From Verrucomicrobiota bacterium (GTDB lineage: Bacteria; Verrucomicrobiota; Kiritimatiellia; JAAZAB01), in the NCBI GenBank assembly GCA_018898455.1, contig JAHIJO010000014.1, positions 1,560 through 65,559 of the forward strand: a stretch of DNA of 64,000 nucleotides. The letters run 5' to 3'. Made by a program: the position numbers and the translations under genes. The notes beneath the pieces are model-generated. The model had not been told where the DNA came from, searched no databases, and saw nothing but the letters and a program-made list of their open reading frames with translations. Numbering within the stretch: position 1 is the stretch's first letter; each line of letters opens with the position of its first letter. Shown here one piece after another: positions 10,658 to 46,758 of the stretch.

Positions 10658-11530
10658 TCACGAGCGGTCCAAGTTGTTCGAGCTTATTTCAAAATATCGT
10701 TCCATCGCGGACAGCCCCTCGGGGGTGCCCATGTCCAGGAGCGGCGGTGGAACGGGGAAGGCACGCAACTGGCCTTGCGCCGCCAGTTCGGGAAAGATGT
10801 CCGTTTCGAGCGATATCTTCTTGCCGACTGCGAACGGGGCCAGGGCCTTCTTGTCCATCAGATAGGCGCCACCATTGACCCATCCTTCCTGGCGCTCCGC
10901 CTTTTCATGGAATGCGCTGATCCTGCGATCCGGATCGAATTCAATCGTTCCATAGCGGCCGGTTTCACGAATTGTGGTCACGGCAAGGCTCGCGAGTGGG
11001 CCAGCCTGCTCATGGGCTTGTCGAAATGCCGCGAAATCCAGATGGGGCAGGAACGAATCGCCGTTCAACACCAGGAATGGATCGGAGCGAATGTGTTTTT
11101 CCACGTGTTTCAGTCCTCCGCCGGTGCCCAGGGGCGAGGGTTCGGCGGAGAAAGAAAGCGAGAGATCAGAGGAGAAAGGAAAAAAAATAGCCTTGCTGAT
11201 GCGAAATAATTGCCCGTGAATTCCATCGGTCTTTTTGCTGATTTCTGACCCACCTTCGCCCCTTGACGGCTGGCTATGGCGGGCGAGCCTCTGACCTCTG
11301 ACTTCTGATTTCTGACTTCTAGCTTCTGCCGGGCACAGCCATTCTTGAATGGCTTCGCTCATATGGCCGGAGGCCAGATGGATATCGCGCACCCCGCCTT
11401 GGCTCAGCCAAGCCAACTGATGCTCCAGGAACGGTATTCCGGCGACCGGGATAAGGGCCTTCGGCCGATCCGGATATAACCGGCTGATGCGGATTCCTTT
11501 GCCGCCAACAAGAATGATCGCTTGAACCAT
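10658..11530 (-). CDS. sugar-1-phosphate nucleotidyltransferase (HddC/mannose-1-P guanylyltransferase-like) carrying ~40 aa low-complexity in-frame insertion
   Basis: The N-terminus ILVGGKGIRISRLYPDRPKALIPVAG matches the GGxGxRLxxLT-type motif, and EPSPLGTGGGL matches the EPLGTAG motif. The segment between them is about 40 aa longer than usual. It is encoded by a repeat-like insert containing an A8 tract and TCTGAYT heptamers. Confidence 0.6.
   Translation of the reverse strand: MVQAIILVGGKGIRISRLYPDRPKALIPVAGIPFLEHQLAWLSQGGVRDIHLASGHMSEAIQEWLCPAEARSQKSEVRGQRLARHSQPSRGEGGSEISKKTDGIHGQLFRISKAIFFPFSSDLSLSFSAEPSPLGTGGGLKHVEKHIRSDPFLVLNGDSFLPHLDFAAFRQAHEQAGPLASLAVTTIRETGRYGTIEFDPDRRISAFHEKAERQEGWVNGGAYLMDKKALAPFAVGKKISLETDIFPELAAQGQLRAFPVPPPLLDMGTPEGLSAMERYFEISSNNLDRS
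11290..11331. repeat. imperfect heptanucleotide tandem repeat (TCTGACC/TCTGACT/TCTGATT/TCTGACT/TCTAGCT/TCTGCCG) inside CDS
   Basis: Read directly from the sequence: 6 units with a 7-bp period. Confidence 0.8.
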
Positions 11531-11605
11531 GACGCTTCAGATAATATACTTATATGCCTTTTTGTCAAAAAGGGATTTCACGCGGATTAATTGCCTCCAA
11601 AGCTT

Positions 11606-12634
11606 ATGGCAGATGCTAACAGACCCGATCTTTCGGTTGTGATCCCGACACTGGGCCGTCCTTTTGTCGTCCGCACGCTGACGTCCTTGGCGGCAGCTCA
11701 TGGATTTTCGAAACTGGAAATCCTCCTGATCGGCAAGATTCCGGATGTTTCTGTGGCCGAGCGGGTGCGGGCCATTTCGATGCAGTATCCGCAGATTCGC
11801 CATATCGCTGTTTCGTTTGAGACCGGCGATTCCAGCGAAAAGAAGAATGCCGGCCTTCGGGCAGCGAGCGCGGATATCGTGGCGTTTCTTGATGACGACG
11901 TCATCGTGGCGCCGGACTGGGCAGAAAAAATACTGACGCCGTTTTCACAGCCTGATGTCGGATTGGTCAGCGGTCCCAGCCTGGTGCCCGCTGATATCCC
12001 GTTGCCGGGGCGTCTGGCCGGCCTGGCGCTGTCGTCATATGCGGCCGGTTACGTTGCCCGGCGCTACCTGCGACAACAGGAGGGGCCGCATGCCGCCACC
12101 TGGTCGCAGATTATCGGCTGTAATATGGTTTACCGGAAATCCGTGCTGATTGACATCGGTGGGTTCAATCCGAGATTCTGGCCCGGGGAGGAAATGATCG
12201 CGTCGTATCGGACGGCTCAGCGCGGCTATCGGATTATTTTTCATCCGCAGGCCTGTGTCGACCATTATCCCCGGACATCGGTGATGGGCTTTATGCGTCA
12301 GATGTTTGGATACGGGGCCACGCGCATTCGGCTTATCCGGGCGGGCGTTACATTGGAACCGATGACGCTGATTCCCGGGCTATGGTTGTTGTCGTTGGTG
12401 ATATTGCTGCCGGGGGCCTGGGTCTCGTATTGGGTTGCGATGTTGCTGGCGGTCAACATTGGAGCTTACGCCCTGATCGATATCGCCATAACCATGATGA
12501 AGGTAATGGCCACCCGCCGCGCGATTGACCTATTGCTATTGGGCTACATTCCGCTCATGCACTTGAGTTACGGACTGGGGGAATGGATAGAATTGCTGAT
12601 GCCAGGCCGGGATTTGAGCGAGCAACGCGGTTAG
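11606..12634 (+). CDS. family 2 glycosyltransferase with C-terminal membrane segments
   Basis: ORF 11591..12634 has DLSVVIPTLGRP and DDD motifs of GT-A/GT2 followed by 3-4 hydrophobic helices. The start is ATG 11606 or TTG 11591. Confidence 0.75.
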   Translation: MADANRPDLSVVIPTLGRPFVVRTLTSLAAAHGFSKLEILLIGKIPDVSVAERVRAISMQYPQIRHIAVSFETGDSSEKKNAGLRAASADIVAFLDDDVIVAPDWAEKILTPFSQPDVGLVSGPSLVPADIPLPGRLAGLALSSYAAGYVARRYLRQQEGPHAATWSQIIGCNMVYRKSVLIDIGGFNPRFWPGEEMIASYRTAQRGYRIIFHPQACVDHYPRTSVMGFMRQMFGYGATRIRLIRAGVTLEPMTLIPGLWLLSLVILLPGAWVSYWVAMLLAVNIGAYALIDIAITMMKVMATRRAIDLLLLGYIPLMHLSYGLGEWIELLMPGRDLSEQRG

Positions 12635-12850
12635 CCCGGGATTATTCCGTTGATTTTGTCATTATCCCATGATGGGCCGAAAGGGGTAATCGCATTCCGG
12701 CAAAGACGCCATGGGAATACTCGTCACGGTCTTCGCTATTGGATGTCTGGGCCTGGGTCAGCCAATGGTTCCACCAGCGCGTCAATTCTTCATGAGACAG
12801 ATGGCGGATATCCAAATCCTCTTCGCTGAGAAATTCATCTGCGACGGGAA

Positions 12851-13679: not shown

Positions 13680-14981
13680 TTAAATCGGAGCATCCGATTT
13701 GCGGCTTTGCGACTTCACAATCAGAGCAATCCCGGCGCCCAGACAGATCATAATGCCGAGCCATTGCCAGATTAATTGCCTTTTGTCCGGGGCGTATTTC
13801 AACATGACTTCGTGTAATCCCGGCGATGGCACCAGGATTCCCTGGCAAATGAAATCCACCCGCCTGACCGGAACCGGTTCCCCATCAATCCAGGCATGCC
13901 AGTCGCGATCGTATTTTTCCGAAACTCGCAGTATGGACGGGCCATCGGATGAAACCTTGAGTTTCATGTAACCAGGCTTGTATTCAATCAGTTGGACTTG
14001 GCCGACAATCCCGCGGCCGTCCGTCGCCGGCAATCCGGCGACGGATTCGGGGGCCACCAAGACTTTTTCAAAAGGCACAAAGTCGCGCGCGCCCAGCCGG
14101 CGGAGCGCCTCGTCGTCCCCGACTTCCTGCCAACCGGCGATCAGCGCAAAGCGGGGGGCGGGCTTTTTCAGGCGCAGGATCGCGTGCTGGCCCGGCGTGC
14201 TGGGCGTGGCCGGAATGACCTTGACCCCCATTTCCGCCGGCGTCACATTGTAGGCATAAACAAGGTCAAAAGCGTCCTTCATGGCCGGGTCGTTTTGGAT
14301 CTGGCCCCAAACCTGGGACGGCGCCAGAACATAGCCGACGGCCGAGAGTTGCCAATACCTAAGCGCGTGTCCCCCGACGGCTTCCAGGTAGCGTTTGTAG
14401 TCCGCCGGCATCCGCGGCATCTGGGTCACATTCATGGTAAGAATGTGATAATAAGGAAACACATAGGTCAGCCAGAAATTGTAGAATCCATCCTGCGATA
14501 CCAAGGCCACGCGGTGTTCCGGCATATCGGACTTTAATATCCGGATAACGTCATTTTCTTCGAACACCGACATGGGCATGGTTTTGATATAGTGACGGGA
14601 GAGCCAGAGGGCGTCGCCGGCAACGATCAGGACCAGTATCCAAGCCGGTGCCCGGCGCCACATCGAAGCGCGCCTGAGGGGGGATGTAAGAATCCACAGG
14701 CATACGCCTGCGGCCAAAGTCATGAGCGCGGCATGCCATAAAGCCGTCACTTTGTTGCCGACAATTATTGCGGCATACGATCCCCAGCCCTGGGAGTTCA
14801 TCAGGGCCGTTTCCTCGCGAACGGCGCCGGTTTGCATCAGGGCCCAGAGGGCCAGTAGCCCCCCCAGGATGAACACCCCGGTGACAAAATGCCGGACCCA
14901 GCGTGGGATTGTCGTTACCAGGGTATCGAACGCCGGAGCTGACTTTTTCGTTGAAGGCTCAGGTTGTTTCTGTTTCTTCAT
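13680..14981 (-). CDS. membrane protein with large extracytoplasmic C-terminal domain (possible GT-C/YfhO-like C-terminal module)
   Basis: ORF 13680..15086 with an internal start MKKQKQ at 14981. It has four TM helices, then a ~300 aa soluble domain, then a C-terminal TM. Confidence 0.5.
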   Translation of the reverse strand: MKKQKQPEPSTKKSAPAFDTLVTTIPRWVRHFVTGVFILGGLLALWALMQTGAVREETALMNSQGWGSYAAIIVGNKVTALWHAALMTLAAGVCLWILTSPLRRASMWRRAPAWILVLIVAGDALWLSRHYIKTMPMSVFEENDVIRILKSDMPEHRVALVSQDGFYNFWLTYVFPYYHILTMNVTQMPRMPADYKRYLEAVGGHALRYWQLSAVGYVLAPSQVWGQIQNDPAMKDAFDLVYAYNVTPAEMGVKVIPATPSTPGQHAILRLKKPAPRFALIAGWQEVGDDEALRRLGARDFVPFEKVLVAPESVAGLPATDGRGIVGQVQLIEYKPGYMKLKVSSDGPSILRVSEKYDRDWHAWIDGEPVPVRRVDFICQGILVPSPGLHEVMLKYAPDKRQLIWQWLGIMICLGAGIALIVKSQSRKSDAPI

Positions 14982-14988
14982 GAAGAGA

Positions 14989-15100
14989 TTGGCCCGCGAA
15001 ACACGCGAAAGGACCGTGAATATAAATACCTGAAAATTGCACGGAGGCGTGCAATTTTCACCCTCCGGGCCGTCGTAACCCCGCATTAATGCGGGGTTAC
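14989..15100. repeat. palindrome-dense intergenic block
   Basis: It contains a CGCGAA-family repeat at 14989-15020. A perfect 12-bp IR GAAAATTGCACG/CGTGCAATTTTC lies at 15032-15059, and a perfect 26-bp palindrome GTAACCCCGCATTAATGCGGGGTTAC lies at 15075-15100. Homologous CGCGAA-rich copies lie at 38400 and 40837. Confidence 0.7.
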
Positions 15101-15150
15101 AAGGGGTTAACCACTTGCGTTTAGCGTATAACCCATTGGGTTATCCGCCC

Positions 15151-15228: not shown

Positions 15229-15238
15229 AAATACATAG

Positions 15239-15691
15239 TTAACTTGATATGCTTATCATTTTTTTTCTTGTATTTGCCAGCCGTTCCCATTCCAGCTTGG
15301 GATAATGTCCGAAATTAACCAGTAAGCCGAGCTTAAAGCCAGTCGCTTGGAGATAATTGATTACTTGCGCTCTGTGCTCGTCGGTTAGTTGAGAAACGGC
15401 TTTAATTTCCGCAATTATTTTTTCGTAACAAATAAAATCAGGTTCGTAAGCGTGTTTGAGACGGCGTCCTTTGTATTCCAGAGCAAGCGTTTTCTGGGAG
15501 ACAAAAGGCATGCCTAGTAGCTCGAATTCTATTTCGAGGCATTCCTGATAAACAGGCTCAAGAAATCCGCATCCCTTATTTCCATAAACCTCAAGACATG
15601 CGCCCACAACCTTAAACGCTTCCTCTCTATATATCAGGTTATCCATATTCGCGTTCGTTTCGCGGGCTACATTCTTATCTTGCCTTTCCAT
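15239..15691 (-). CDS. GxxExxY protein (PD-(D/E)XK-like)
   Basis: 150 aa ORF with GCGFLEPVY (a GxxExxY motif) and a typical ~125 aa core. It overlaps the stop of the upstream membrane-protein gene by 25 bp. Confidence 0.75.
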   Translation of the reverse strand: MERQDKNVARETNANMDNLIYREEAFKVVGACLEVYGNKGCGFLEPVYQECLEIEFELLGMPFVSQKTLALEYKGRRLKHAYEPDFICYEKIIAEIKAVSQLTDEHRAQVINYLQATGFKLGLLVNFGHYPKLEWERLANTRKKMISISS

Positions 15692-16992
15692 CTGCAGAGC
15701 AATCCGTCCAATCCATACGCCGCCAGGATACCCAGCGCCAACTGGAATATATGTAAAAACTTGTTCGGATTACGAATGGACGACACCATCGGCAATTTGT
15801 AAAACAAGGCATACAGAGGAAAGAACTTCCCAAACGCCAGCAACAACGTAACCACCGCCACACATCCCCAGAAAATAATCTCCGCTCTCCGCTCCGCATC
15901 TTCCGTGTCATTCGGTGTGTTCCGCGGGTCATTGCGATTCCTGATTCCGGCCGTCGCCATCAGGACGGCAAACAATGCCAGCAGAATGGGAATAGCGCCG
16001 AGATACTGGTTCTCCAGCTTAAAATTCATGAACCCCTGCCGGGTTTGTTCCCACCCTGCCGAACGTCCCATCCGCCCCCAGTACGGACCCGCCGGTTCAC
16101 CACTGCGCCAGCCCATATAGCCCGGGGCGATAAAATCAATGCATTCATCCGGCGGCCAGCTCCATTGCGTCGCGAAATCCCAATTTGCCTTGGGCGATTC
16201 AGTCTGCATACTGACCGCACCCTTGACATTAAATGCATAACTACTGAGCGTTGAGGACGCGGAAATTAACAGGCCAATCCCACCCATTAAGCTGAGAGCA
16301 ATCGCCGATTTTACCCAAGTGCCATTTGCCCGCCCTTGCCGAACAGCCAGGAACAAAGCATAGGCGCCCAGGATAAAGCCGAAAAAAAGGGCCACATCCG
16401 GTTGTTCGAGGAACATGAACCCGATGGCGCCGCCTGCCAGAATGCCCCAAAGCAGACTCGGTTGCCGGGCTAAAGCGCGCGAAATGCAATACAAAGCCAC
16501 ACTGGCCAGCATCAGCACTCCATATTTCCCGAGATGGCCGGCATACGTCAGGGTCAAATTACTACCCAGCCAGAAGGCGGTCAGCAGCCCCAACGCGATG
16601 GATGCCCATCCGGCTTTCTGTTCCCGCATAAACAACACGGAAAAAAATGAGGCAATAATAAGATCAAGAGCATGAACCCAGTTGATATACATCTTGACCG
16701 GCAGGAGCCAGACCAGAAGATAAGCCCATGAATGCGGCATAAACTTGCCCCCATTGCCCAGATAAGGCGTATCGCCCCACGCCCCGAAAAAGGCTTGCGG
16801 CAAAATAGATTTGGATCCTGCGACGCTCCCGATATTGTCGTCCGTGGAAAACAGACAACAGTCCGGGGCCAGGATTTGACGGAACATCAGGAGCGCAAAG
16901 CCGATGAGCGCCAAGGCCATGAGCCATGTCGCCCCGCGACCTGTTGATTCGTTGCTGCGATGCTGGGTTACTTGGTCCATACAGCCAGACAA
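15667..16992 (-). CDS. polytopic membrane protein (~10 TM; possible GT-C/YfhO-like N-terminal module)
   Basis: 441 aa ORF, highly hydrophobic, with an STDDNIG segment in the first loop. Confidence 0.5.
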   Translation of the reverse strand: MSGCMDQVTQHRSNESTGRGATWLMALALIGFALLMFRQILAPDCCLFSTDDNIGSVAGSKSILPQAFFGAWGDTPYLGNGGKFMPHSWAYLLVWLLPVKMYINWVHALDLIIASFFSVLFMREQKAGWASIALGLLTAFWLGSNLTLTYAGHLGKYGVLMLASVALYCISRALARQPSLLWGILAGGAIGFMFLEQPDVALFFGFILGAYALFLAVRQGRANGTWVKSAIALSLMGGIGLLISASSTLSSYAFNVKGAVSMQTESPKANWDFATQWSWPPDECIDFIAPGYMGWRSGEPAGPYWGRMGRSAGWEQTRQGFMNFKLENQYLGAIPILLALFAVLMATAGIRNRNDPRNTPNDTEDAERRAEIIFWGCVAVVTLLLAFGKFFPLYALFYKLPMVSSIRNPNKFLHIFQLALGILAAYGLDGLLCRWKGKIRM

Positions 16993-17396: not shown

Positions 17397-17963
17397 ATGA
17401 ACGAATCATATATCGAGAGACTGCGTGTTCTCCACGAAGTGCTTTTGGGACTGCAGGTAACTAACGGACGCGGTTCCAGGTTGGATCCGGCAACGGGCTT
17501 TAACAGACTGCTTCAATTGACCCTCGATGCCAGAAAGAAGCATAGCGCCATTTTTTTGGTCGGCAATGGCGCCAGCGCCTCAATGGCCAGCCATATTGCG
17601 GCGGATCTTTGTAAAAATGCCGACCTGAACACGGAAGTGTTTTCTGATTTCTCGCTGCTGACGGCTGTTGCCAATGATGTCGGCTCCGATCATCTCTATG
17701 CGGTGCCTTTAAAACGCCGGGCGAAAGCAAACGACATCCTGGTTGCCATAAGCAGTTCTGGTAAATCGCGGAATATATTGGAGTCGGTTCGCATGGGCCG
17801 CAAGATGGGGGTGAAAGTGATTACGTTTTCGGCAATGAGCATTAATAATCCCTTGCGTAAAACGGGCGATCTGAATTTTTATATAAGGGCCGGTTCATAT
17901 GGGCTGGCCGAATCCGCTCATGCGGTTTTGCTGCATTACTGGGTTGATATGCTTTCTCGTTGA
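17397..17963 (+). CDS. gmhA: D-sedoheptulose 7-phosphate isomerase (SIS domain, GmhA-like)
   Basis: ORF 17262..17963 with an internal start MNESYIERL. The SIS-domain motifs are present (VGNGASASMASHIAADL, ISSSGKS). Confidence 0.75.
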   Translation: MNESYIERLRVLHEVLLGLQVTNGRGSRLDPATGFNRLLQLTLDARKKHSAIFLVGNGASASMASHIAADLCKNADLNTEVFSDFSLLTAVANDVGSDHLYAVPLKRRAKANDILVAISSSGKSRNILESVRMGRKMGVKVITFSAMSINNPLRKTGDLNFYIRAGSYGLAESAHAVLLHYWVDMLSR

Positions 17964-18003
17964 ATAGGTGATTATCCGGACAGCTTATCCAGGATGTTCG
18001 ATA

Positions 18004-19017
18004 ATGAGTGTCAATTTTAAGAAAGTTCTTGTACTGGGAAGCAATTCATTCACCGGCTCGCATTTGATCAGATGTTTGCTGGACAATACCGAAGCGGAAA
18101 TAGTTGGTATAAGCCGGTCGGCGGAATATAATCCTGTTTTTTTACCGTATCGTTATCTCAAGAATATTCCGGCGCGGTTTAGATTTTGCCGGATTGATTT
18201 GAACAATGATTTTGCCGGAGTTGCCCGGCTTTGCGATGAGTTTCGCCCTGAAATTATCGTGAATTATGCCGCCCAAGGCGAAGTGCGCAATAGCTGGAAC
18301 TGGCCGGAGCAGTGGTATCGGACTAATTGCCTCGCGGTTGTCCGCGTTTCGGAAATTTTTAAAACAAAGGACTATTTGAAAAAATATATTGCTGCTTCCA
18401 CTCCGGAGGTTTATGGCGCAACGGGGCTGAATATAAAAGAAAGCCACAGCTATTATCCAAGTACACCGTATGCCGCTTCAAAGCTTGCGGGGGATTTGCA
18501 TCTTTTTGCTTTGCATAAACGCCATGGGTTCCCGGTTGTGTTTTCAAGGACGGCAAATGTTTATGGCATTCATCAACAGCTTTATCGTATCATTCCACGC
18601 ACGATTATTTTTCTAAAAGCCGGCAAAAAGATTACGCTTCACGGGCGCGGCGAGTCCCGGCGGGCTTTTATTCATGCCCGTGACGTCGCCGATTTTACCT
18701 TACGTTTGATCTTGCGGGGCAAGCCGGGTGAAATTTATCATTTGTCGCCGAAGGAAGGATTAATGCGCATTGCCGATGTGGTGCGGCAGATATGCGGCAT
18801 GATGGGACGCGGCTTTGACGAATCGGTGGAGTTGGTTGACGAAAATTACGGTCAGGATGATCAATACAGCCTTGATTCGACGAAGGCCGGCCGCGAACTT
18901 GGCTGGCGCCAGGCCGTGCCGTTTGAGGAAGGTTTAAAGGAAACAATAACCTGGATATCCGACAATTGGGATTTTATCCGCGCCCAGCCGTTGGAATACA
19001 AGCATATTGCGAGTTAA
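18004..19017 (+). CDS. NDP-sugar 4,6-dehydratase family (NAD-dependent epimerase/dehydratase, extended SDR)
   Basis: ORF 17968..19017 with GSNSFTGSHL (the Rossmann GxxGxxG motif), a YxxxK catalytic motif and the ~340 aa length of RmlB/GDP-heptose dehydratase-like enzymes. Confidence 0.75.
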   Translation: MSVNFKKVLVLGSNSFTGSHLIRCLLDNTEAEIVGISRSAEYNPVFLPYRYLKNIPARFRFCRIDLNNDFAGVARLCDEFRPEIIVNYAAQGEVRNSWNWPEQWYRTNCLAVVRVSEIFKTKDYLKKYIAASTPEVYGATGLNIKESHSYYPSTPYAASKLAGDLHLFALHKRHGFPVVFSRTANVYGIHQQLYRIIPRTIIFLKAGKKITLHGRGESRRAFIHARDVADFTLRLILRGKPGEIYHLSPKEGLMRIADVVRQICGMMGRGFDESVELVDENYGQDDQYSLDSTKAGRELGWRQAVPFEEGLKETITWISDNWDFIRAQPLEYKHIAS

Positions 19018-21364: not shown

Positions 21365-21389
21365 CCGGCGAAGCCGCCCGCCGCGACGT

Positions 21390-25325: not shown

Positions 25326-25332
25326 TAACGTT

Positions 25333-31795: not shown

Positions 31796-32008
31796 CAGGG
31801 ACGGCCAAAGAGATCGGGCGTCGTGAAATAACAGCACAATCACGACCGATAATCCATAGATATTGATTGCATCATACCGTGCCAGCGCCTGTTCCATATC
31901 GCCGCGTTACGGCTTTGATGCTTTGCATTCCCACATCTTAACCATTTTTACCTTTCTGCTTGCCTCCAAGCCCCTGCCTTGCCACAATTATGGTCTCGAA
32001 CGCATCTT

Positions 32009-38399: not shown

Positions 38400-38521
38400 T
38401 TGCCCGCGAACCACGCGAAAGGAACGCGAAAACTGATTACTCAACTGGCTTGAATTTCCTATTCATCGATTTGGATATATAAAATTTACTATTCGTGTCC
38501 TTTTGCTTGTTTCGCGGGCAA
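38400..38521. mobile_element. MITE-like 122-bp element with 13-bp terminal inverted repeats TTGCCCGCGAACC / GTTTCGCGGGCAA
   Basis: TIRs read directly with 12/13 complementarity. The internal motif CGCGAAAGGAACGCGAAAACTGATTAC is shared with 40837-40876 and 14989-15012. Confidence 0.6.
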
Positions 38522-38559
38522 ACTCTTTGGGGTTTCAGCCGCCCCTGGCGGATTTGACT

Positions 38560-39789
38560 ATGACAGCACCTGCATCCAATGATCGGAAACTGCGCGTGGC
38601 CTTGCTTTACCGGTATGGGGTTCACGATCACAAGGAATTGTATCCAATCATTCCCGAGGTGCTGCGGCAGTTGGGCCGGCAGTGTGAAGCGCTCTATATG
38701 GGACCTAATCGCCGGCGGGCGGGCATTCAATACCGGTTCCCAGGCGTCAGCTATCGCTTTCTGCCTTTTACCGTGAACCGGGCCAGCACCTTCGACAAGA
38801 TAACCAAGGCTTTGCTCTGGTATGCCTGTCTGCCTTTTGTGGCGTTTTTCTTTCGTTTTGTTTGGCGCGCTGATTTGATTTGGATTGATGAAAGCAGTCT
38901 GCCGGCGCAGGGACGCCTGATGCAGATGATTTCCGGCCGGCCGCTGGCCATAACGGTCTGCGATTTTTTTCTTAGCATCTACAGCGAAAAAATTTCCTGG
39001 TTGCGTCCTTGGGGGATATGGCTCAACGCCATTGACCAGAAGAGCTGGCTTAAGGCGGCCGGTCTGTTTACGCGATCGGAAAGCCTGCGGCGCTATCTGC
39101 TTGCGCGGGGAGTATCGCCCGAGCGCGTGGTGGTGGCCCGGGATGCCGTGTTGCCTGATTTGTTTGTGCCCGGTGACGCCGCGGCGCTGCGACGCAAACT
39201 GGGGTTTGGCGATGCGGATGTGGTGCTTTGTCATCACGGCATCCTGCATCCGAACAAAGGCATTCTGCGCGTTGTCCGCTGGATGCTCCCGATAATGAAG
39301 TCGGATCCGCATCTGAAACTGTTGATTATCGGAGGCGGACCGGACTTGGAACCGCTGCGGGAACTGGTTCGGAAGAATCAACTCCAGAATCAAATCATTC
39401 TTACCGGCTGGCTGGCATCCCATGCGGAAGTGAATGCGCATCTTAATGCCGCGGATATTGGGCTGGTCATGCGGGTCGGGCAAAGCTCGGATCATTTCCA
39501 TGTGACCGGCGCCTTGATCCACAGCATGATGTGCGCCCTGCCGGTGCTGGCGTGCCGGCTGGAGGGCATCCAGGAGATAGTCACGGAAGGTCAGGAAGGC
39601 GTGCTGTTCGATCCGGATTCGGCCGGGGAATTTCTACAAAAACTGGATGTGCTTAAACAGAATGCCGCGCGGCGGCGCGAGATGGGGCAGAAGGGACGGA
39701 CCAAGGCGCTGGCTGAATTCAATCCCGAGCATATTGCGAAGCAAACCGTGGAGACCTTGATCCGGTTTGCCCGCCGGGGCCGGCCGTGA
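38560..39789 (+). CDS. family 4 (GT-B) glycosyltransferase
   Basis: ORF 38503..39789 with an internal start MTAPASN. The C-terminal EGxxGVLFDP motif (E-x7-E region) matches GT4. Confidence 0.8.
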   Translation: MTAPASNDRKLRVALLYRYGVHDHKELYPIIPEVLRQLGRQCEALYMGPNRRRAGIQYRFPGVSYRFLPFTVNRASTFDKITKALLWYACLPFVAFFFRFVWRADLIWIDESSLPAQGRLMQMISGRPLAITVCDFFLSIYSEKISWLRPWGIWLNAIDQKSWLKAAGLFTRSESLRRYLLARGVSPERVVVARDAVLPDLFVPGDAAALRRKLGFGDADVVLCHHGILHPNKGILRVVRWMLPIMKSDPHLKLLIIGGGPDLEPLRELVRKNQLQNQIILTGWLASHAEVNAHLNAADIGLVMRVGQSSDHFHVTGALIHSMMCALPVLACRLEGIQEIVTEGQEGVLFDPDSAGEFLQKLDVLKQNAARRREMGQKGRTKALAEFNPEHIAKQTVETLIRFARRGRP

Positions 39790-39797: not shown

Positions 39798-40802
39798 TTA
39801 TCCGGGCTTTGCCGCCGCCACGCTGGGTTCATAAAAAATAATTTGGCTGCCCAGCGATTCGAATTCAAAGGGCACATGGAGCAATGGCGCCATCTGCCGG
39901 CGGAAATGAACCTGCTTGTCCGGCGGCACAAAGAACAGCATGAATCCGCCGCCGCCGGCGCCCAGTAGTTTGCCGCCGATCGCGCCCGCGGCCAGACCCC
40001 TGGCATAGATATCGTCCAAGTAGGCGTTCGATATTTTTGCGCTGAGGGAGCGCTTGATTTCCCAGCCTTCGTGCAAGAGCCGGCCAAAATCACCGATATC
40101 GCCGCTGCCAATGATTTTCATGGCCTCATCCACCATGGCTTGGATGGCCTGCAGTTCCTTTTCCATTTTCGGTGTGTTCCGGATCTGGTCGGCGGCAATT
40201 TCGGAAGCGTTCCGGGAGAAGCCGGTAAAATACAGCAATAGATGGTTTTGCAGTAAATGGATGCGATCGAGCGGCAGGGTTACGGGATGGATTGTTATCC
40301 GGTCGCCCGGTGAAAACCGGATCACGTTCAGTCCGCCGAAGGCGGCAGTCACCTGGTCCTGGGCCCCCACATTCTCGCCGATAAGGTCCCGCTCGACATG
40401 AATCGCTTCCTGGGCCAGTTGCATCCGGGTGCACATTTCACCGCGCATCCCATGCAGGGCGTGTAAAAGCCCCACCGTGAACGAGGAACTGGATCCCAAT
40501 CCCGCCCGGGCCGGCAGGTCGCTGTCATTATGGATCTCAACGCCATCGGTTATTCGCATGAATTGCAGGCCTTTTCGTACGGCCGGGTGCTTGATGTCCT
40601 CAATGGTTCGGACGTCCTCAACCATCGAATACACAATGCGAAACTTGTGTTCGAAGAACGGCGGCAGGTAACGGCAATTGATATAACAGTAGCGATTGAT
40701 ACTGGTGGCGAGCACGGCGCCGCCATGTTCATTGTACCAGACCGGGTAATCCGTGCCTCCGCCAAAAAACGAGATGCGAAAAGGTGTGCGGCTGATGATC
40801 AT
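39798..40802 (-). CDS. hddA: GHMP-family sugar kinase, D-glycero-D-manno-heptose 7-phosphate kinase (HddA)-like
   Basis: The N-terminus RISFFGGGTDYP and the GHMP motif PARAGLGSSSSF have the architecture of GDP-heptose-pathway HddA kinases. Confidence 0.7.
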   Translation of the reverse strand: MIISRTPFRISFFGGGTDYPVWYNEHGGAVLATSINRYCYINCRYLPPFFEHKFRIVYSMVEDVRTIEDIKHPAVRKGLQFMRITDGVEIHNDSDLPARAGLGSSSSFTVGLLHALHGMRGEMCTRMQLAQEAIHVERDLIGENVGAQDQVTAAFGGLNVIRFSPGDRITIHPVTLPLDRIHLLQNHLLLYFTGFSRNASEIAADQIRNTPKMEKELQAIQAMVDEAMKIIGSGDIGDFGRLLHEGWEIKRSLSAKISNAYLDDIYARGLAAGAIGGKLLGAGGGGFMLFFVPPDKQVHFRRQMAPLLHVPFEFESLGSQIIFYEPSVAAAKPG

Positions 40803-40951: not shown

Positions 40952-41893
40952 TTATGAGTGAATCTTGTTGTTGCGATACAGGAGATACCATTTCACGGTT
41001 TTTTCAATGCCCTGTTTAAGCGTATATTTCGGTTTCCAGTTAGTTTTTGCAATAAAGCGTTTGTTGTCAAGCACTTTGTGTTTTACGCCGGTGTATCTGT
41101 CTTTATTAAAAAACAGATTTCCCCGATAACCGACCGCATCGCGGATGATCTCGGCAACTTCCCGAATCGGATATCCTTTTCCATTGCTTATATTTACAAT
41201 CTCATTTTCAAAATGTTCCGCGGCCAGCAGCATCGCGTCGATTTGATCGTCGACATAAAGCAATTCCCGGATTTGCGTTCCATCGCCCCATATCTCAACC
41301 TGCGGCTCATGCTGCTCCTTGGCCTTGATAAACTTGATAATTAGCGCCGCCATGACATGGGTACGGATCGGATCGCCAAAGTAGTCGTCGGGACCAAACG
41401 GGGTCGCATAAATCACATGCACGTACTTTAAATTGTATTGTAAACTATATGCCCGCAATCCTACATCCGCCATGCGCTTGGTATTGGCATAATAAAACAC
41501 CGATTCATCAACCGGTCCCTGATGAAAGTCCGGCTCATACAACAGGCTCATGCTGGCCGGGTACGCGCAGCTGGTTCCGACAAAGATGAGTTTTGCCTGC
41601 GGCTGATACCGGCGCCAGGCCTCCATCGTGTTCGTGTGAATCTGTCCATTGTCATGGACGAGTGACGCGGCCATGCCTTTCTGAAATTCGGGAGCTCCGC
41701 CGCCTTGAATTGCAGCCATGTGGATGATCCGGTCGAATTTATCGAGGGTCCGGAAAAAGGCGAATGTCTGTTCTTCGTTACGCAAGTCGCATTCCCGGCT
41801 ATGGAAGACCCGATAACGGATCGCGCGGTCCGTAAGGATTCGGGCAAGGTTTTTCCCGATAAAACCGGTGCCGCCGGTGATTAATATGTTCAT
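40952..41893 (-). CDS. NAD-dependent epimerase/reductase (extended SDR; GDP-sugar 3,5-epimerase/4-reductase-like)
   Basis: 313 aa ORF. ILITGGTGFIGKNL Rossmann motif and YxxxK (YYANTK) motif. Confidence 0.75.
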   Translation of the reverse strand: MNILITGGTGFIGKNLARILTDRAIRYRVFHSRECDLRNEEQTFAFFRTLDKFDRIIHMAAIQGGGAPEFQKGMAASLVHDNGQIHTNTMEAWRRYQPQAKLIFVGTSCAYPASMSLLYEPDFHQGPVDESVFYYANTKRMADVGLRAYSLQYNLKYVHVIYATPFGPDDYFGDPIRTHVMAALIIKFIKAKEQHEPQVEIWGDGTQIRELLYVDDQIDAMLLAAEHFENEIVNISNGKGYPIREVAEIIRDAVGYRGNLFFNKDRYTGVKHKVLDNKRFIAKTNWKPKYTLKQGIEKTVKWYLLYRNNKIHS

Positions 41894-41917: not shown

Positions 41918-42634
41918 TTATCGCTTATCCGGCGCTGTTTTCAATAACTCTTGCCTGACATATTTCCAGACTTCCTGCGAACTGGGCATTCCCGCTTCCA
42001 CCCGGTCGGAATATACGATTTCCTTTTTTCCTTCGTACTCAACTTCGGGCCACGCCTCTTGCGCAATTTCAGCCAGGGTAATCGTATCGCGCGCCGCAAT
42101 TTCTTTTATCCCGGTTTGATTAATATTATCGATGATCCAGGCCGCGGCAAAGTCAACGTCAAGATAATTATATGCGCTGTGAATATCGACATACACTTTC
42201 TTGCGATGGATCAGGTCATGGAGTGCGCCTTTGTTGAATCCTTTTCCATATAGCGCCGCCAGCCGGATAATTAATGAATGCTCATGGGTTTCAACCAGCG
42301 ATTCGGCCGTCCGTTTGTTAATGCCATAAGGAACATCGAGCTGGGTCCTTGCCGAAAGAGAGCTGATCTGCACGAATTTGCCGTATTTCCATTCGTAGAT
42401 CAATTCCGCTGTCAAGCGGACCGTTGCGTCAAAATCAAGCAGGGGGTTCTGGAACGCCCAAAACCTTTTGGAGGGCATGGCGGTGTTGATTAAAACATCA
42501 TATTCTTGCGCCTTATGCTGGGCGTAAGTTTGGCGGGAAATCATGACTGGTTCCAAGACCGCCGGATGTGTTGCTACCGCTCGACACAATGCCTGGCCGA
42601 TAAAACCATTGGCTCCGACAATACCTACCTTCAT
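41918..42634 (-). CDS. NAD(P)-binding SDR-type oxidoreductase (RmlD-like reductase candidate)
   Basis: 238 aa ORF. VGIVGANGFIGQAL Rossmann motif. Confidence 0.5.
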   Translation of the reverse strand: MKVGIVGANGFIGQALCRAVATHPAVLEPVMISRQTYAQHKAQEYDVLINTAMPSKRFWAFQNPLLDFDATVRLTAELIYEWKYGKFVQISSLSARTQLDVPYGINKRTAESLVETHEHSLIIRLAALYGKGFNKGALHDLIHRKKVYVDIHSAYNYLDVDFAAAWIIDNINQTGIKEIAARDTITLAEIAQEAWPEVEYEGKKEIVYSDRVEAGMPSSQEVWKYVRQELLKTAPDKR

Positions 42635-42660: not shown

Positions 42661-43116
42661 TTAATGAATATGCTTGGCGATTTTGTTTTGTTCTTTGAAA
42701 TAAGCGCTCTTGGGATCGCCATGGTCGCCTTCGCCCATACCCAGATTCTCGTGGATAATTGGTTTTTTGCAGTCGTTCCAGCGCTTGGTCAGAAAAGACA
42801 CGGATTGGCAATCGGTGATTGCAAGGAAAACATGGTACGTGCCGCGTGGGATATAGATGCAATCGCCCTTGGCCATCGAGATAAAATACTCCTTGCCGTT
42901 CTTCGTGTCCTTTTCTACCTCCACGCCGTTACCGTCCACGAGCAGGATATATTCGTCGAATTCAGGATGGCAGTGATTTCCCCGAATCTTGCCGGTCTTG
43001 ATGAACTGATGCGTGAATTCCCGGATTGGCTGATTCGGCGCAAAGGAAAAAATAGCGCCGCGTCCATCGCGAATGGTGTTCAGGTTGCAGGCCGGCTTGA
43101 AAGACTTCATTTTCAT
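42661..43116 (-). CDS. cupin-fold sugar-nucleotide epimerase/ketoisomerase-like protein (RmlC/FdtA/WxcM-like)
   Basis: 151 aa ORF with a beta-rich cupin pattern and conserved His (GNHCHPEFDEY). Confidence 0.45.
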   Translation of the reverse strand: MKMKSFKPACNLNTIRDGRGAIFSFAPNQPIREFTHQFIKTGKIRGNHCHPEFDEYILLVDGNGVEVEKDTKNGKEYFISMAKGDCIYIPRGTYHVFLAITDCQSVSFLTKRWNDCKKPIIHENLGMGEGDHGDPKSAYFKEQNKIAKHIH

Positions 43117-43207: not shown

Positions 43208-44470
43208 CTAGGTCTGTATCGGTGTCCGTAATCTGCGGATGTGAATTCCAAGGCCTTTAATCAGGACCAGCAACGTCAAGACACTGACGATCGCAAGGAC
43301 AGCAACGATTTCCAGGACGGAAGTGTGCCGGATCGAGACCCCGATCAAGTACCCGCCGGCGCACAGGATTAACGGCACGGTCATGCGGAAGCGGTTTTGG
43401 GCCAGTTCAAAAGACATGATGATAAAGGCAAGTCCCAGGGGGCTCATGGCCCAGATCGTACAGCGGACCAGCCGGCACATGGCGATGCTGGGAGTCCAGT
43501 CGCGGTACAGAATGCCGAGCGGCAATTGCGGCAGAACGCTGCATACCAGGAGCGCGGGCACAATGATCAGGCCGGCATAGGCCAGGGCGCGCGCCAGCAG
43601 TTTTCCGTGCTGGGCGCTCATGGCGCCGTTCGACACCGTTTTGGGGAAAAGGGCTCCGGCAATCGGCATAGGGAGAAAAATGATCATGCGTCCGATCGTG
43701 CCCGCCCGCGCAAAAAGTCCCGCTTGATCCTCGGGAAAATAATGTTTCACGATCAGCACGTCGGCGTTCATGAGGAAGGCGAAAGAGGCCAGCACCACAA
43801 ATGTGCGTAGAAAATACGTATGGGTTCCCGGCAGGGGCTTATCCGATGGCGATGCGTTTCGGAGGATTATCCAAATACCGGCCAGCCCGAGCGCGCCGCC
43901 GGCGATGATGCCCAAGCCTTGTCCCACCAGCGCCCACTGGGCGGCGGCGGCGATAAAATACACCAGGGCGCCGCCGGCGATCAGCCGGACAATGCTCCAG
44001 ATTGTGCCTGAAAAGGATGCCCAGACGAAAGCCTGGATGCCCTGCAGAACTCCCCCGATAACCGGCGGAAAGAATGACAAGGCCAGAATGGTCAGCGCCA
44101 GGATGATGGCGTACCGATCCGGCAATTGGAAAAATTGCGCCAGCGGGTGGCTTAACAGGATACCGGCCGCAAGCAAAGGAACGGCGATCAGCAGGAGTTT
44201 CCACGACCAGGAGCGCACGAGCGGAAAAATGTCTCCGGCGCGATCCTGCTGAAGCAGTTGCGCGGAAAAGAATGCCAGGGCATTGCTCAGGGCGCTTAAC
44301 GGCATGCCGGCAATCAGGACCACGCCCAGCATGGATGAGAGAATGCCGTATTCCGCGGGCAAAAGCCACCGGCCCATGGCCATGTGAAAAAGCACGTTGC
44401 AGAGGTTGCTCACCTGGCCGGCTGCCATCAGCAAGAGACTATGCCGCAGAAGATGGTCTTTAATATGCAC
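43208..44470 (-). CDS. Wzx-like oligosaccharide flippase (MOP/MATE-like polysaccharide transporter)
   Basis: 420 aa ORF with about 12 TM helices and a polysaccharide-locus context. Confidence 0.7.
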   Translation of the reverse strand: MHIKDHLLRHSLLLMAAGQVSNLCNVLFHMAMGRWLLPAEYGILSSMLGVVLIAGMPLSALSNALAFFSAQLLQQDRAGDIFPLVRSWSWKLLLIAVPLLAAGILLSHPLAQFFQLPDRYAIILALTILALSFFPPVIGGVLQGIQAFVWASFSGTIWSIVRLIAGGALVYFIAAAAQWALVGQGLGIIAGGALGLAGIWIILRNASPSDKPLPGTHTYFLRTFVVLASFAFLMNADVLIVKHYFPEDQAGLFARAGTIGRMIIFLPMPIAGALFPKTVSNGAMSAQHGKLLARALAYAGLIIVPALLVCSVLPQLPLGILYRDWTPSIAMCRLVRCTIWAMSPLGLAFIIMSFELAQNRFRMTVPLILCAGGYLIGVSIRHTSVLEIVAVLAIVSVLTLLVLIKGLGIHIRRLRTPIQT

Positions 44471-44539
44471 GGTAATTACCGGAGTATCCGGCGCCTGATC
44501 CGGGCGCTAAATGGAGTCAGGAAAAAGCATGGGCGCCGG

Positions 44540-45091: not shown

Positions 45092-45627
45092 TATTTCGCG
45101 TTACAGCCCCTGTCATCTGGAACGGGCACAGCCAATCGGGTCCAGTGCAGCAGGGGGGACGAGAGGGGGGGGGTCTTAGATAAGGCTTGATGAATCCTCT
45201 GCCAGACGAAGTGTTCCGGCGCAACACGGATGGCTTGGCGAGACAGTTCAGCCAGGACCAGTTCCGCCCGTTCGCGGCGCGCCGCTGCCAGTAAAGTGTC
45301 CGCATTCACGGCTTGCATGGAAACTAACTGCGCGGCGGCGCGCAACATTTGCGGCCGATCCTGGTTGTTCGGTTGGCAAATGGCGACAACCAGTTCCTCA
45401 TTGGAAAGCAGGCTTAACGGCGGCGGAACGAAGTCCGGGCTGGCTGGCGGCCAGCGGGTTACAAACCGTGCCCCTCTAGCATTAATGACATCCAAAAGCC
45501 AGTCTTCCAAACATTGCGCGCCCGCGGAAGGATATGCCCGCATTAGACTTCCCAGCCGAATCCGCAAAGCCGAAACGTGTATGGTCACGCCCAGCCGTTG
45601 GGCAAGGATGAGTGGGCGTTGATTCAT
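45073..45627 (-). CDS. hypothetical protein (possible partner of downstream NTase-like gene)
   Basis: 184 aa ORF overlapping the next gene by 19 bp. No family recognised. Confidence 0.3.
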   Translation of the reverse strand: MNQRPLILAQRLGVTIHVSALRIRLGSLMRAYPSAGAQCLEDWLLDVINARGARFVTRWPPASPDFVPPPLSLLSNEELVVAICQPNNQDRPQMLRAAAQLVSMQAVNADTLLAAARRERAELVLAELSRQAIRVAPEHFVWQRIHQALSKTPPLSSPLLHWTRLAVPVPDDRGCNAKYWKLVS

Positions 45628-45822
45628 GAAATATCGCTTCCGGTCCCGAGGTGGAACTCCACAAGTTTCTCCAAATTGTGAATGAATGGGAATTCCATTT
45701 TGCGGAACGTCATATGTGCCTTGAGATATTTTTCCGCCGCCTGCGGTTTGACTTGCTCAATCATTTTCGTGAAAGCCAATCACTACTATGTGTCTTTGTG
45801 CCTTGGTGGCATATTATCCAAG

Positions 45823-46758
45823 CTAGACATTGGCGTATTGGTTGCGCCGGATCACTTGATAGCCCTTGATGAGTTCCGCAATGCCCGTTTGCAGGCCGAC
45901 CTGCGGCTTATAGCCGGTGTGCTCAATTTTTTCGTTGCTGACGTTGTAATTCCGCTGATCTGGATCCACGCCAATCTTGGATTCCAGGATATGGAATTCA
46001 GGGACCTGTTTCTTGATTTCCAGACAAAGTTCCATCTTGGACAGATTGGCATCGCTGAGTCCCACGTTGTACGTCTCGTTGCGCATCGCATCGAAATGCT
46101 CGATGGCATGGATAAAGGCGCGCGCCACATCCCGGACGTGGATGTAATTACGCTTGAAATGGGCTTCGAAAAGAACCACAAACCGGTCCGTGACCGCGCG
46201 ATATGTAAAATCATTCACCAGCAGGTCCAGCCGCATACGGGGGCTGATCCCGAATGCGGTGGCCAGGCGCAGGGAAATGGCGTGGCCTGAATCCAGGAGA
46301 TATTTTTCCAGGTCCACTTTTAAGCGCCCGTACAGGGAAACAGGCCTCAAAGGCGTTTTTTCGGTGCAATACCCGCTCTTTTTTCCGATGCCGTACCCGC
46401 TGTTCGTGGTCGGGGAAACGATCATCTGACTTCGACTGCTCAACCCCGCCAGCAGTTTCACAGCCTCCAGGTTGATCGCTCGCGCTTCGATGGGTCGTTG
46501 TGCGCACACGGGAGCTCCCACAAGACAAGCCAGGGGAATCAGAACATCCGCTTTCCGTAGATGACTTTTTAGAAGAGCCTTGTCCCGCGCGTCACCGCGA
46601 ATAATGGTCAGGCGGGGCTGATGACAGCAATCCAGCAGTGAGGTCTGGCCATACAGGAAATTATCAATGACGGTGACCGCGTGTCCGTCAATTAAAAGCA
46701 TGGGAACCAGGACAGATCCGATATAGCCGGCGCCGCCGGTCACGAGAATGTTCATCAT
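45823..46758 (-). CDS. NAD-dependent epimerase/dehydratase (UDP-glucose 4-epimerase-like extended SDR)
   Basis: 311 aa ORF. ILVTGGAGYIGS Rossmann motif and YxxxK. Confidence 0.8.
   Translation of the reverse strand: MMNILVTGGAGYIGSVLVPMLLIDGHAVTVIDNFLYGQTSLLDCCHQPRLTIIRGDARDKALLKSHLRKADVLIPLACLVGAPVCAQRPIEARAINLEAVKLLAGLSSRSQMIVSPTTNSGYGIGKKSGYCTEKTPLRPVSLYGRLKVDLEKYLLDSGHAISLRLATAFGISPRMRLDLLVNDFTYRAVTDRFVVLFEAHFKRNYIHVRDVARAFIHAIEHFDAMRNETYNVGLSDANLSKMELCLEIKKQVPEFHILESKIGVDPDQRNYNVSNEKIEHTGYKPQVGLQTGIAELIKGYQVIRRNQYANV

Follow-up and report, generated by a model that had tools for sequence, protein, structure and literature searches.

Class B cobalamin (B12)-dependent radical S-adenosylmethionine (SAM) enzymes include GenK and GenD1, which act in the C-methylation of gentamicin, and HpnJ, which acts in the ring contraction of a hopanoid-linked sugar. 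Two-carbon branching of 4-keto sugars by thiamine diphosphate (ThDP)-dependent enzymes has been documented for an E1 type and for a YerE type (PMC4425429, PMC9306805): branching at C4 has been proposed for the E1alpha/E1beta-type proteins AviB1/B2 (eurekanate of avilamycin) and Pau11/Pau12 (paulomycose) (PMC4425429), and YerE/YerF (yersiniose) and ErwE/MyGE attach an acyl branch to a 4-keto nucleotide sugar of an envelope glycan, after which reduction follows (PMC9306805). The capsular GDP-heptose pathway of Campylobacter jejuni employs GmhA, HddA, GmhB, HddC, the GDP-D-glycero-D-manno-heptose C4-dehydrogenase Cj1427, a 4,6-dehydratase, cupin epimerases, and GDP-fucose-synthase (GFS)-like C4-reductases (PMC10680097). 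Here, we analyzed a stretch of 64,000 nucleotides from a Verrucomicrobiota bacterium (assembly GCA_018898455.1, contig JAHIJO010000014.1, positions 1,560 to 65,559; hereafter, the window), in which an E1alpha/E1beta gene pair and three B12-binding radical SAM genes lie among nucleotide-sugar genes between about 10.6 and 46.8 kb.

Like AviB1/B2 and Pau11/12, the E1alpha and E1beta proteins of the window stand alone, without E2 or E3, beside enzymes that form 4-keto sugars, a likeness of gene arrangement and setting. While AviB and Pau proteins belong to actinomycete antibiotic pathways and take hexose or pentose units as substrates, reportedly once glycosyl transfer has taken place (PMC4425429), the pair in the window lies in a primary surface-glycan locus, is tied to heptose-type activation, and is spread over more than 20 phyla. 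The reaction that we propose below would resemble that of YerE/YerF and ErwE/MyGE, but YerE-type enzymes are single-chain flavoproteins with an acetolactate synthase fold, whereas the window encodes a heterodimeric E1 fold; YerE-like genes often accompany the E1 cassette in other genomes, and none is present in the window. With the C. jejuni route, the window shares enzyme classes, namely a SIS isomerase, a GHMP kinase, a nucleoside triphosphate (NTP) transferase, an RmlB-like short-chain dehydrogenase/reductase (SDR) next to two Cj1427-like ones, a cupin, and a GFS-like reductase. In contrast to that route, all matches are distant, and the dominant activator is a fusion resembling HldE in reversed domain order. 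According to PMC10680097, the C. jejuni pathway contains neither a ThDP enzyme nor a B12-binding radical SAM enzyme, and its one DegT-type protein is a pyridoxal phosphate (PLP)-dependent C3-dehydratase, without tandem aminotransferases. The B12-binding radical SAM proteins of the window share with GenK, GenD1, and HpnJ an N-terminal B12-binding domain combined with a radical SAM core, and homologues of two of the three lie in sugar contexts; their putative substrate, in contrast, is a sugar of a surface glycan, for which we found no published example. The enzyme types and the ThDP-dependent branching of 4-keto sugars are already known. Our literature search, incomplete in its coverage, returned no description of a conserved combination in which heptose-type activation goes together with an E1-type enzyme or of its breadth across phyla, nor of B12-radical SAM tailoring blocks in surface-glycan, O-antigen, or capsule loci.

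Genes were called from a listing of open reading frames (ORFs) together with Pfam and NCBIfam scans of the window and, for selected proteins, a PDB sequence search. All gene classes listed in a preliminary description of this DNA were found, with starts that were exact or at most about 40 nt off, and the glycan or nucleotide-sugar biosynthetic island that it proposed is borne out. We have high confidence that this is a glycan locus and that it represents neither PDH (pyruvate dehydrogenase) nor the maturation of a RiPP (ribosomally synthesized and posttranslationally modified peptide). The fuller mechanistic picture, a cell-surface glycan locus of O-antigen or capsule type that consists of at least two modules of different history, is one whose chances we consider evenly balanced.

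The E1alpha/E1beta pair belongs to a cassette of sugar genes

The two subunits of the ThDP-dependent enzyme are encoded next to each other:

25312..26301, plus strand: E1 alpha subunit, stand-alone, ThDP-dependent (Pfam E1_dh, 8.9e-65)
26317..27378, plus strand: E1 beta subunit (Pfam Transket_pyr and Transketolase_C)

E1alpha scored 299.4 bits with the PDH equivalog model TIGR03182, without reaching its cut-off of 393.85, and E1beta, with 329.5 bits, lay narrowly above the cut-off of 321 of a subfamily model for PDH E1beta. Neither E2 nor E3 domains were detected among the window proteins with Pfam. E1alpha has thousands of homologues, the closest of which (57-79% identity) originate from very diverse phyla. 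Scanning GTDB with a single genome for each species returned at least 599 stretches with E1alpha matches, 80 of which were fetched; the genome of the window is not itself one of these representatives, and the matches, with identities of 57-76%, ranged from Nitrospirota to Cyanobacteria, Planctomycetota, Chlamydiota, and Omnitrophota, and the core of the cassette recurs in more than 20 phyla.

For the comparison of loci, tblastn searches with the island proteins were combined with a clustering of all ORFs across 84 loci (1.37 Mb). Among the 32 loci in which E1alpha is flanked by 8 kb or more in both directions (well-flanked loci), E1beta was present in 88%, a Cj1427-like SDR and a reversed HldE in 81% each, an RmlB-like SDR in 78%, and a SIS isomerase in 62%, with either the reversed HldE or the SIS isomerase in 91%. 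The recurrent core therefore comprises the reversed HldE, the SIS isomerase, the extended SDR, E1alpha, E1beta, and the RmlB-like SDR. Gene order is conserved as well, with E1beta immediately 3' of E1alpha in 63 of 75 loci and the Cj1427-like SDR immediately 5' of it in 36 of 72. The accessory genes around the core, by comparison, are freely exchanged between genomes; frequent ones encode YerE-like enzymes, split transketolases, sugar C-methyltransferases, short-chain reductases, and zinc-dependent alcohol dehydrogenases. In none of the ORFs of the 84 loci was the E2 catalytic motif DHRxxDG found.

The clustering exceeds chance, since the synteny of the core is kept across phyla. An accidental adjacency of the E1 and heptose genes, which the preliminary description had named as the alternative to its proposal, is refuted by the co-conservation of the pair with GmhA-like, HldE-like, and 4-keto-forming SDR genes across many phyla. 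With the E2 motif absent from 84 loci and E1alpha below the PDH cut-off, the pair is not a genuine PDH either. Because it lacks an E2 partner and keeps its synteny with sugar genes across phyla, we consider it genetically tied to an NDP (nucleoside diphosphate)-heptose-like pathway. The cassette is apparently uncharacterized and widespread, occurring in hundreds of species, and the E1 pair most likely branches a 4-keto sugar by two carbons.

Module A: heptose-type activation and a possible route to a branched sugar

The genes from about 17.4 to 30 kb, which we refer to as module A, include, besides the E1 pair:

17397..17963, plus strand: GmhA-like SIS isomerase, probable sedoheptulose-7-phosphate isomerase (Pfam SIS_2)
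17968..19017, plus strand: RmlB-like extended SDR, probable NDP-sugar 4,6-dehydratase (Pfam Epimerase/GDP_Man_Dehyd)
19024..20172, plus strand: DegT aminotransferase 1, PLP lysine kept (Pfam, 1.6e-103)
20165..21364, plus strand: DegT aminotransferase 2, tandem paralogue, PLP lysine kept (Pfam, 6.2e-107; PDB QdtB, 8.5e-96)
21480..23036, plus strand: HldE-like bifunctional enzyme in reversed order (CTP_transf_like and PfkB)
24375..25325, plus strand: Cj1427-like extended SDR, probable NDP-heptose C4-dehydrogenase (best PDB matches 6vo6/6vo8, E 1.6e-41)
27503..28597, plus strand: radical SAM/SPASM protein, cluster motif incomplete, possibly inactive (Pfam)
28688..29968, plus strand: orphan GT-B glycosyltransferase with a GT9/fucosyltransferase-like fold (fold match)

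For the SIS protein, 13 of 15 PDB matches are phosphoheptose isomerases (best E 9.5e-14), the remaining 2 being DiaA. The HldE-like protein carries a nucleotidyltransferase domain (residues 22-156, HPGH) followed by a PfkB kinase domain (residues 193-501, GAGD), the opposite of the order in HldE; this reversal is also found in its relatives. The sole PDB relative of the kinase domain is the heptose-7-phosphate kinase 4e84, and NCBIfam rfaE models match it as well. The HldE-like kinase/adenylyltransferase of the preliminary description stands as far as both domains and their catalytic motifs are concerned, with a domain order and a score that depart from those of HldE. The heptose and dehydratase assignments reach no further than the family: the matches to GmhA (60.6 bits vs. 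a cut-off of 209), HldE (125.6 vs. 521), HddA (149.6 vs. 600), HddC (98.8 vs. 300), and RmlB (191 vs. 365) are all below the curated NCBIfam cut-off.

The RmlB-like SDR matches dTDP-glucose 4,6-dehydratases in the PDB (2.8e-39). For DegT 1, the top PDB match is 3uwc (5.6e-110), followed by DesV-, QdtB-, and WbpE-type entries; QdtB, DesV, and WbpE act at C3. A tandem DegT-DegT pair follows E1beta on its 3' side in about a third of the related loci, including that of Microcoleus. A ColD-type 3-dehydratase was considered for one of the two DegT proteins and rejected, as the PLP lysine is present in both copies of the window.

The gene for the radical SAM/SPASM protein has a G+C content at third codon positions (GC3) of 0.35. 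A GT9-like gene corresponding to the orphan glycosyltransferase is embedded in the E1 cassette in 3 related loci (L007, L088, and L089), and a Pfam GT9 gene closes 1 of these clusters (L089). The orphan GT-B enzyme is a candidate transferase for the module A sugar. In 2 of these loci, a flavoprotein resembling UDP-galactopyranose mutase (GLF) is encoded between the SPASM and the GT9-like genes (L088, 8827-10017; L089, 8802-10004), a hint that the sugar of these organisms may be a furanose. Two intergenic stretches of 79 nt form a direct repeat with 84% identity, one located 3' of a PDDEXK_3 gene (15145-15223) and the other between DegT 2 and the reversed HldE (21374-21452).

We propose that module A is a horizontally acquired copy of the widespread cassette. 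The GmhA-like isomerase and the reversed HldE-like kinase/nucleotidyltransferase would convert sedoheptulose 7-phosphate to an NDP-heptose, from which the Cj1427-like SDR, the RmlB-like SDR, or both would generate a 4-keto or 4-keto-6-deoxy sugar. The ThDP-dependent E1alpha/E1beta enzyme would then introduce a C2 branch into the 4-keto sugar, and the tandem DegT pair, in whose place other genomes carry reductases, would aminate one or more keto groups in this variant. The finished sugar would be transferred by the orphan GT9-like enzyme. Our confidence in a heptose substrate and in C2 branching is moderate.

Module B: a probable B12-radical SAM decoration block and a possible second sugar route

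Downstream, from about 30 to 44.5 kb, module B begins with a block of putative decoration genes:

30059..31795, plus strand: B12-binding radical SAM protein a (PF02310 and PF04055; CPFDCTFC)
31979..33547, plus strand: B12-binding radical SAM protein b (PF02310 and PF04055; CPGKCVFC)
34199..34879, plus strand: TylF-like SAM-dependent methyltransferase (Pfam TylF, 3.7e-11)
35419..36195, plus strand: FkbM-family methyltransferase (Pfam Methyltransf_21; TIGR01444 above cut-off)
36754..38232, minus strand: B12-binding radical SAM protein c, HpnJ-like (PF02310 and PF04055; CX4CX2C)
38503..39789, plus strand: GT4 glycosyltransferase, likely start at 38560 (Pfam Glycos_transf_1)

The cluster motifs of proteins a and b (B12a and B12b) are of the CX3CX2C type, and the B12 domain of protein c (B12c) scored 29.9 bits, below the Pfam gathering threshold of 32.1. 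The best NCBIfam matches of the three proteins were PhpK (139 bits vs. a cut-off of 600), Sden_1168 (221 vs. 575), and, for B12c, HpnJ (172 vs. 578), and none of them reached the level of a characterized equivalog, be it PhpK, Sden_1168, HpnJ, HpnR, KedN5, TsrM, or others. As the best matches include P-methyltransferases, a phosphonate pathway was also considered; it was rejected, with neither a phosphoenolpyruvate mutase nor a phosphonopyruvate decarboxylase domain among the window proteins.

Homologues of B12a are located in glycan loci (L085-L087). Of those with 42-49% identity, one lies in a glycosylation cluster that contains AglB, and another in a Planctomycetes cluster with three tandem B12-radical SAM genes, GT11, GT2, and GT4 glycosyltransferases, and an initiating transferase. 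Homologues of B12c (46-63% identity) occur in the order GT2 - B12c - Wzx in classical polysaccharide loci; genes of this family were found in L091, L095, L099-L102, L108, and L119-L126, as well as in the human-gut contigs L103-L114. Genes in the vicinity of the B12a and B12c homologues encode AglB, Bac_transf, Wzx, GT2 and GT4 enzymes, GDP-mannose dehydratase, and DegT. The GT2 genes directly 5' of B12c homologues in many metagenome loci share 22-29% identity with the GT2 gene of the window, and this pairing recalls that of HpnI with HpnJ in the tailoring of hopanoid sugars.

Given this occupancy of glycan loci by their homologues, B12a, B12c, and the SPASM protein are associated with glycans, without an obligatory link to E1. 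RiPP maturation, which the preliminary description had named as a pathway that would speak against its proposal, does not apply: B12a and B12c homologues lie in glycan loci, the SPASM orthologue lies by an E1/DegT cassette, and no precursor peptide, peptidase, or transporter gene of the RiPP type was seen beside the radical SAM genes of the window, the context of B12b being known only from the related locus L085. The block of B12-radical SAM, TylF, and FkbM genes most likely methylates or otherwise radically modifies glycan sugars, while any assignment of an exact role to the B12 enzymes would be of low confidence.

The remaining genes of module B, including those at 10.6-12.6 and 45.8-46.8 kb, are as follows:

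10658..11530, minus strand: sugar-1-phosphate nucleotidyltransferase, HddC/ManC-like (Pfam NTP_transferase, 7e-20)
11591..12634, plus strand: GT2 glycosyltransferase (Pfam Glyco_tranf_2_3, 2.7e-24, and Glycos_transf_2)
39798..40802, minus strand: GHMP sugar kinase, HddA-like (Pfam; HddA as best NCBIfam match)
40952..41893, minus strand: GFS-like SDR, 4-keto sugar epimerase/reductase (Fcl, 173.8 vs. 500 bits; PDB GDP-fucose synthetases, 8.6e-34)
41918..42634, minus strand: short SDR-like protein (Pfam Epimerase, 1.7e-8)
42661..43116, minus strand: small cupin, sugar ketoisomerase/epimerase-like (Cupin_2, FdtA weak; PDB WxcM-like, 2.2e-5; Cap5F and RmlC weaker)
43208..44470, minus strand: membrane protein with about 10 transmembrane (TM) segments, Wzx-like flippase by transitive homology (hydrophobic segments)
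45823..46758, minus strand: second Cj1427-like extended SDR, paralogue of 24375-25325 (32% identity, E 5e-41, shared SPRMRLDL)

These genes could form a second sugar route in the style of C. jejuni, for which the HddA-like kinase, the HddC-like transferase, the second Cj1427-like SDR, the cupin, and the GFS-like reductase would be used. For the nucleotidyltransferase, the top NCBIfam match is mannose-1-phosphate guanylyltransferase (126.4 vs. 440 bits), with HddC in second place and matched in two stretches; a low-complexity insert of about 58 residues (residues 63-120, window 11171-11344) splits its nucleotidyltransferase domain. Homologues of the GHMP kinase (44-48% identity) occur near E1 cassettes in L054, L062, and L089. 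In L089, a homologue of the second Cj1427-like SDR (59% identity) adjoins a set of GHMP, SIS, and NTP transferase genes, and the combination of kinase, transferase, C4-dehydrogenase, cupin, and GFS-like reductase stands beside an E1 cassette there as well.

The Wzx flippase of the preliminary description is partly supported. The protein has about 10 hydrophobic segments and shares 26-27% identity with proteins of L099, L100, and L102, the one in L100 matching Polysacc_synt/Polysacc_synt_3, but it has no Pfam or PDB match of its own. Pfam at E<=10 and the PDB search were likewise uninformative for 15667-16992 and 12851-13660.

One pathway or several

The base composition of module A is foreign, while that of module B is largely native: GC3 stays at 0.35-0.60 between the SIS gene and about 31 kb, compared to 0.64-0.73 in the housekeeping genes on the flanks and in most genes located at 32 to 44 kb, and the second half is host-like at 0.65-0.72. 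In the related locus L085, B12a, B12b, TylF, FkbM, B12c, GT4, and the Wzx-like gene are found in the same order with 66-85% identity (B12b 81%, TylF 80%, FkbM 73%, GT4 80%, and Wzx-like 66%), or 73-85% for the series from B12a to GT4. Its kinase and SDR genes are far more divergent than this block. Upstream of the block, L085 encodes FG-GAP proteins and guaA, and no E1 cassette is present within the readable 10 kb. Taken together, the GC3 split and a block that is kept in L085 without an upstream E1 cassette indicate at least two modules, and the presence of two activation routes and of two Cj1427-like SDRs points to two sugars.

The preliminary description had instead assigned every one of these activities to a single hypermodified heptose, with the enzymes from 10.6 to 46.8 kb acting in series to yield a single C-branched, C-methylated, O-methylated, and aminated sugar. 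The adjacency of all genes in the window fits such a series, as do 2 further loci: in L082, a relative of B12a (36% identity) and an orthologue of the SPASM protein (64%) follow the order E1a-E1b-DegT-DegT, and in L002, the E1 cassette itself contains TylF, SPASM, and B12-radical SAM genes. Yet the split in composition, the L085 block, the doubled activation routes and SDRs, the exchange of accessories between genomes, and the many glycan loci in which B12a and B12c homologues occur without E1 genes all speak for separate histories, and we consider a single series improbable. Module A may also be real while its chemistry differs from our proposal, either in a substrate other than a heptose or in an E1 enzyme that does not branch C4 but, for example, extends a side chain at an oxidized carbon, transfers a ketol group, or decarboxylates a keto-acid sugar. 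Such a reading would accommodate the low scores of the heptose enzymes, the reversed order of HldE, and the altered catalytic residues described below, as well as the extra NTP_transferase that is often encoded 3' of the reversed HldE and the common zinc-dependent alcohol dehydrogenase and class I methyltransferase partners, which have no explained role. On the other hand, the SIS protein and the kinase domain have their structural relatives among heptose enzymes, related loci hold GmhB-like and GT9 genes, the SDR linked to E1alpha resembles a heptose C4-dehydrogenase, and a 4-keto acceptor follows the documented logic of ThDP-dependent sugar branching; we regard a different chemistry as unlikely, though worth keeping in view.

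That the product is a secreted or lipid-linked small molecule, such as an aminoglycoside-like compound or a glycolipid, rather than a surface polysaccharide, would agree with the known roles of DegT, B12-radical SAM, TylF-type, and E1-type enzymes in antibiotic sugar pathways. It would also agree with a gap in our own reading, as Pfam and NCBIfam recognized no initiating phosphoglycosyltransferase, Wzy, chain-length regulator, or ligase in the 64-kb window. However, the window encodes a Wzx-like flippase, GT2, GT4, and GT9-like glycosyltransferases, and a possible YfhO-like protein, related loci hold AglB, Bac_transf, PMT_2, NeuB, and Wzx, no aglycone, cyclitol, nonribosomal peptide synthetase, or polyketide synthase gene was found, and the cassette is shared by hundreds of unrelated species. 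A small molecule is thus highly unlikely, and the aminoglycoside-like metabolite suggested earlier finds no support. Finally, the E1 proteins might be an ordinary pyruvate or acetoin dehydrogenase E1 that came to neighbor sugar genes by accident; their best structural matches are the E1alpha subunits of PDH and branched-chain keto acid dehydrogenase, E1beta lies just above its subfamily threshold, and public annotations read pyruvate/acetoin dehydrogenase. Given the missing E2 and E3 genes, the E1alpha score, and the sugar-gene synteny across phyla, this is extremely improbable.

A bolder reading, less likely than not, is that the core encodes an undescribed NDP-sugar pathway whose carriers number several hundred species or more and belong to more than 20 phyla, in which C-C bond formation on an NDP-4-keto-heptose by a PDH-type ThDP enzyme would give nine-carbon hydroxyethyl- or aminoethyl-branched sugars, and that, separately, B12-radical SAM enzymes are recurrent tailoring enzymes of ordinary surface glycans, a class without a characterized example so far. 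Several observations weigh against our mechanistic picture. What the analysis establishes is the gene content, the synteny, the co-conservation, the lack of E2, and the folds. Since no heptose or sugar enzyme attains its curated equivalog threshold, we infer every substrate, and likewise the order of steps and the products, from family membership and gene context. The SIS protein has an Asp in place of the catalytic Glu of GmhA, a substitution conserved within its family, and the RmlB-like SDR has the motif T-P-E instead of T-D-E and has thus lost the Asp of the Asp-Glu pair. The PDB entry 6vo6, which we take to be C. jejuni Cj1427, bears a generic name. No GmhB-type haloacid dehalogenase (HAD) phosphatase was found among the window ORFs in the Pfam and NCBIfam scans, although no dedicated search was run and the gene could lie elsewhere in the genome; a GmhB-like HAD protein is present in 7 of the 32 well-flanked loci. 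As for the second route, the HddC-like gene, with its insert, lies about 28 kb away from the HddA-like gene. The SPASM protein has the motif CNYKCEFY (27611-27634), in which the third Cys of CX3CX2C is replaced by Tyr (codon tat), while its 64% identical homologue from Bryobacteraceae (L082) has an intact CNYACGFC; the gene of the window may be inactive, or the change may be a sequence error. With respect to the separation of the modules, L085 is readable for 10 kb per side only, so that an E1 cassette could lie further along its contig, and B12-radical SAM genes of other subfamilies directly follow E1beta on its 3' side in several loci (L003, L005, L007, and L029). Together with the arrangement in L082, the latter makes it possible that the B12 enzymes are functionally connected with the branched sugar.

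If the chemistry proposed here proves right, C-branched higher sugars, known from few antibiotics and a handful of lipopolysaccharides, would be common parts of the envelope in many mostly uncultured phyla, and the label pyruvate/acetoin dehydrogenase on such E1alpha/E1beta pairs would be a systematic misannotation that distorts metabolic reconstructions from metagenome-assembled genomes. It would also provide candidate biocatalysts for C-C bond formation and a testable role for the B12-radical SAM genes of polysaccharide loci. With the core narrowed to a compact set of five or six genes and with cultured carriers such as Microcoleus anatoxicus PTRS2, Lusitaniella coriacea LEGE 07167, Singulisphaera, and Rariglobus, the question is open to experiment.

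Genomic setting and further observations

Housekeeping genes border the island on both sides: Memo, ppx, ppk, rtcB, an MFS/HEAT protein, a GDSL lipase, and a TRL protein on the left, and DUF2961, prfB, yicC, gmk, and coaBC on the right. The housekeeping proteins RtcB, Ppk, Ppx, Gmk, YicC, cardiolipin synthase, and ABC-F of the window have identical counterparts in metagenome-assembled genomes of Verrucomicrobiota. Scans for tRNA genes and Rfam families revealed neither a border element nor a riboswitch at the island edges. Among the island proteins, several are labeled Kiritimatiellae or Actinobacteria.

Two genes for membrane proteins lie to the left of module A:

13680..15086, minus strand: membrane protein with a large soluble domain, possible part of a GT-C enzyme (three hydrophobic segments; weak YfhO C-terminal resemblance, E 0.013)
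15667..16992, minus strand: 8-TM membrane protein, divergent from the module A operon (no Pfam or NCBIfam match)

The former has no Pfam match at E<=0.001. A homologue of the latter (50% identity) is likewise divergent from the cassette in the Verrucomicrobiota locus L007. The idea that the two represent one YfhO gene split by a PDDEXK insertion is unsupported, because the L007 homologue is a stand-alone protein of 438 aa.

Three PDDEXK_3 genes (GxxExxY-type nucleases) are dispersed in the glycan locus (9769-10638, 15239-15691, and 33743-34126). Inverted repeats bracket two of the three (9726-9768/10564-10606 and 33686-33734/34127-34175), and the third has a GC3 of 0.41; these genes look like small mobile cassettes. 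Further small, non-biosynthetic genes are interspersed at 23515-23841, 36332-36709, 12851-13660, and 44540-45627; they include an MNT-type nucleotidyltransferase, likely part of a toxin-antitoxin system, as well as a GIY-YIG nuclease and three soluble ORFs without assignment.

The 21-nt motif CCCGCGAAnnACGCrAAAGGA has 4 copies in the window, compared to 0.04 expected:

14993-15013 (+), 38403-38423 (+), 38498-38518 (-), and 40840-40860 (+): copies of the 21-nt motif

Each copy is located 10-170 nt 5' of a gene start in constant orientation to the gene (13680-15086, B12c, GT4, and the GHMP kinase). The motif is absent upstream of module A, in L085, and in all other fetched loci, and it is a candidate for a shared regulatory element.

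In the right flank, the two halves of CoaBC are encoded by separate ORFs about 500 nt apart (52124-52696, Flavoprotein; 53204-53914, DFP), with no fused gene. Moreover, prfB (49370-50521) contains a classical release factor 2 programmed +1 frameshift site, CTT TGA C (49435-49441), with a G-rich Shine-Dalgarno-like stretch on its 5' side, and the prfB ORF of 428 aa listed from 49235 overestimates the protein.

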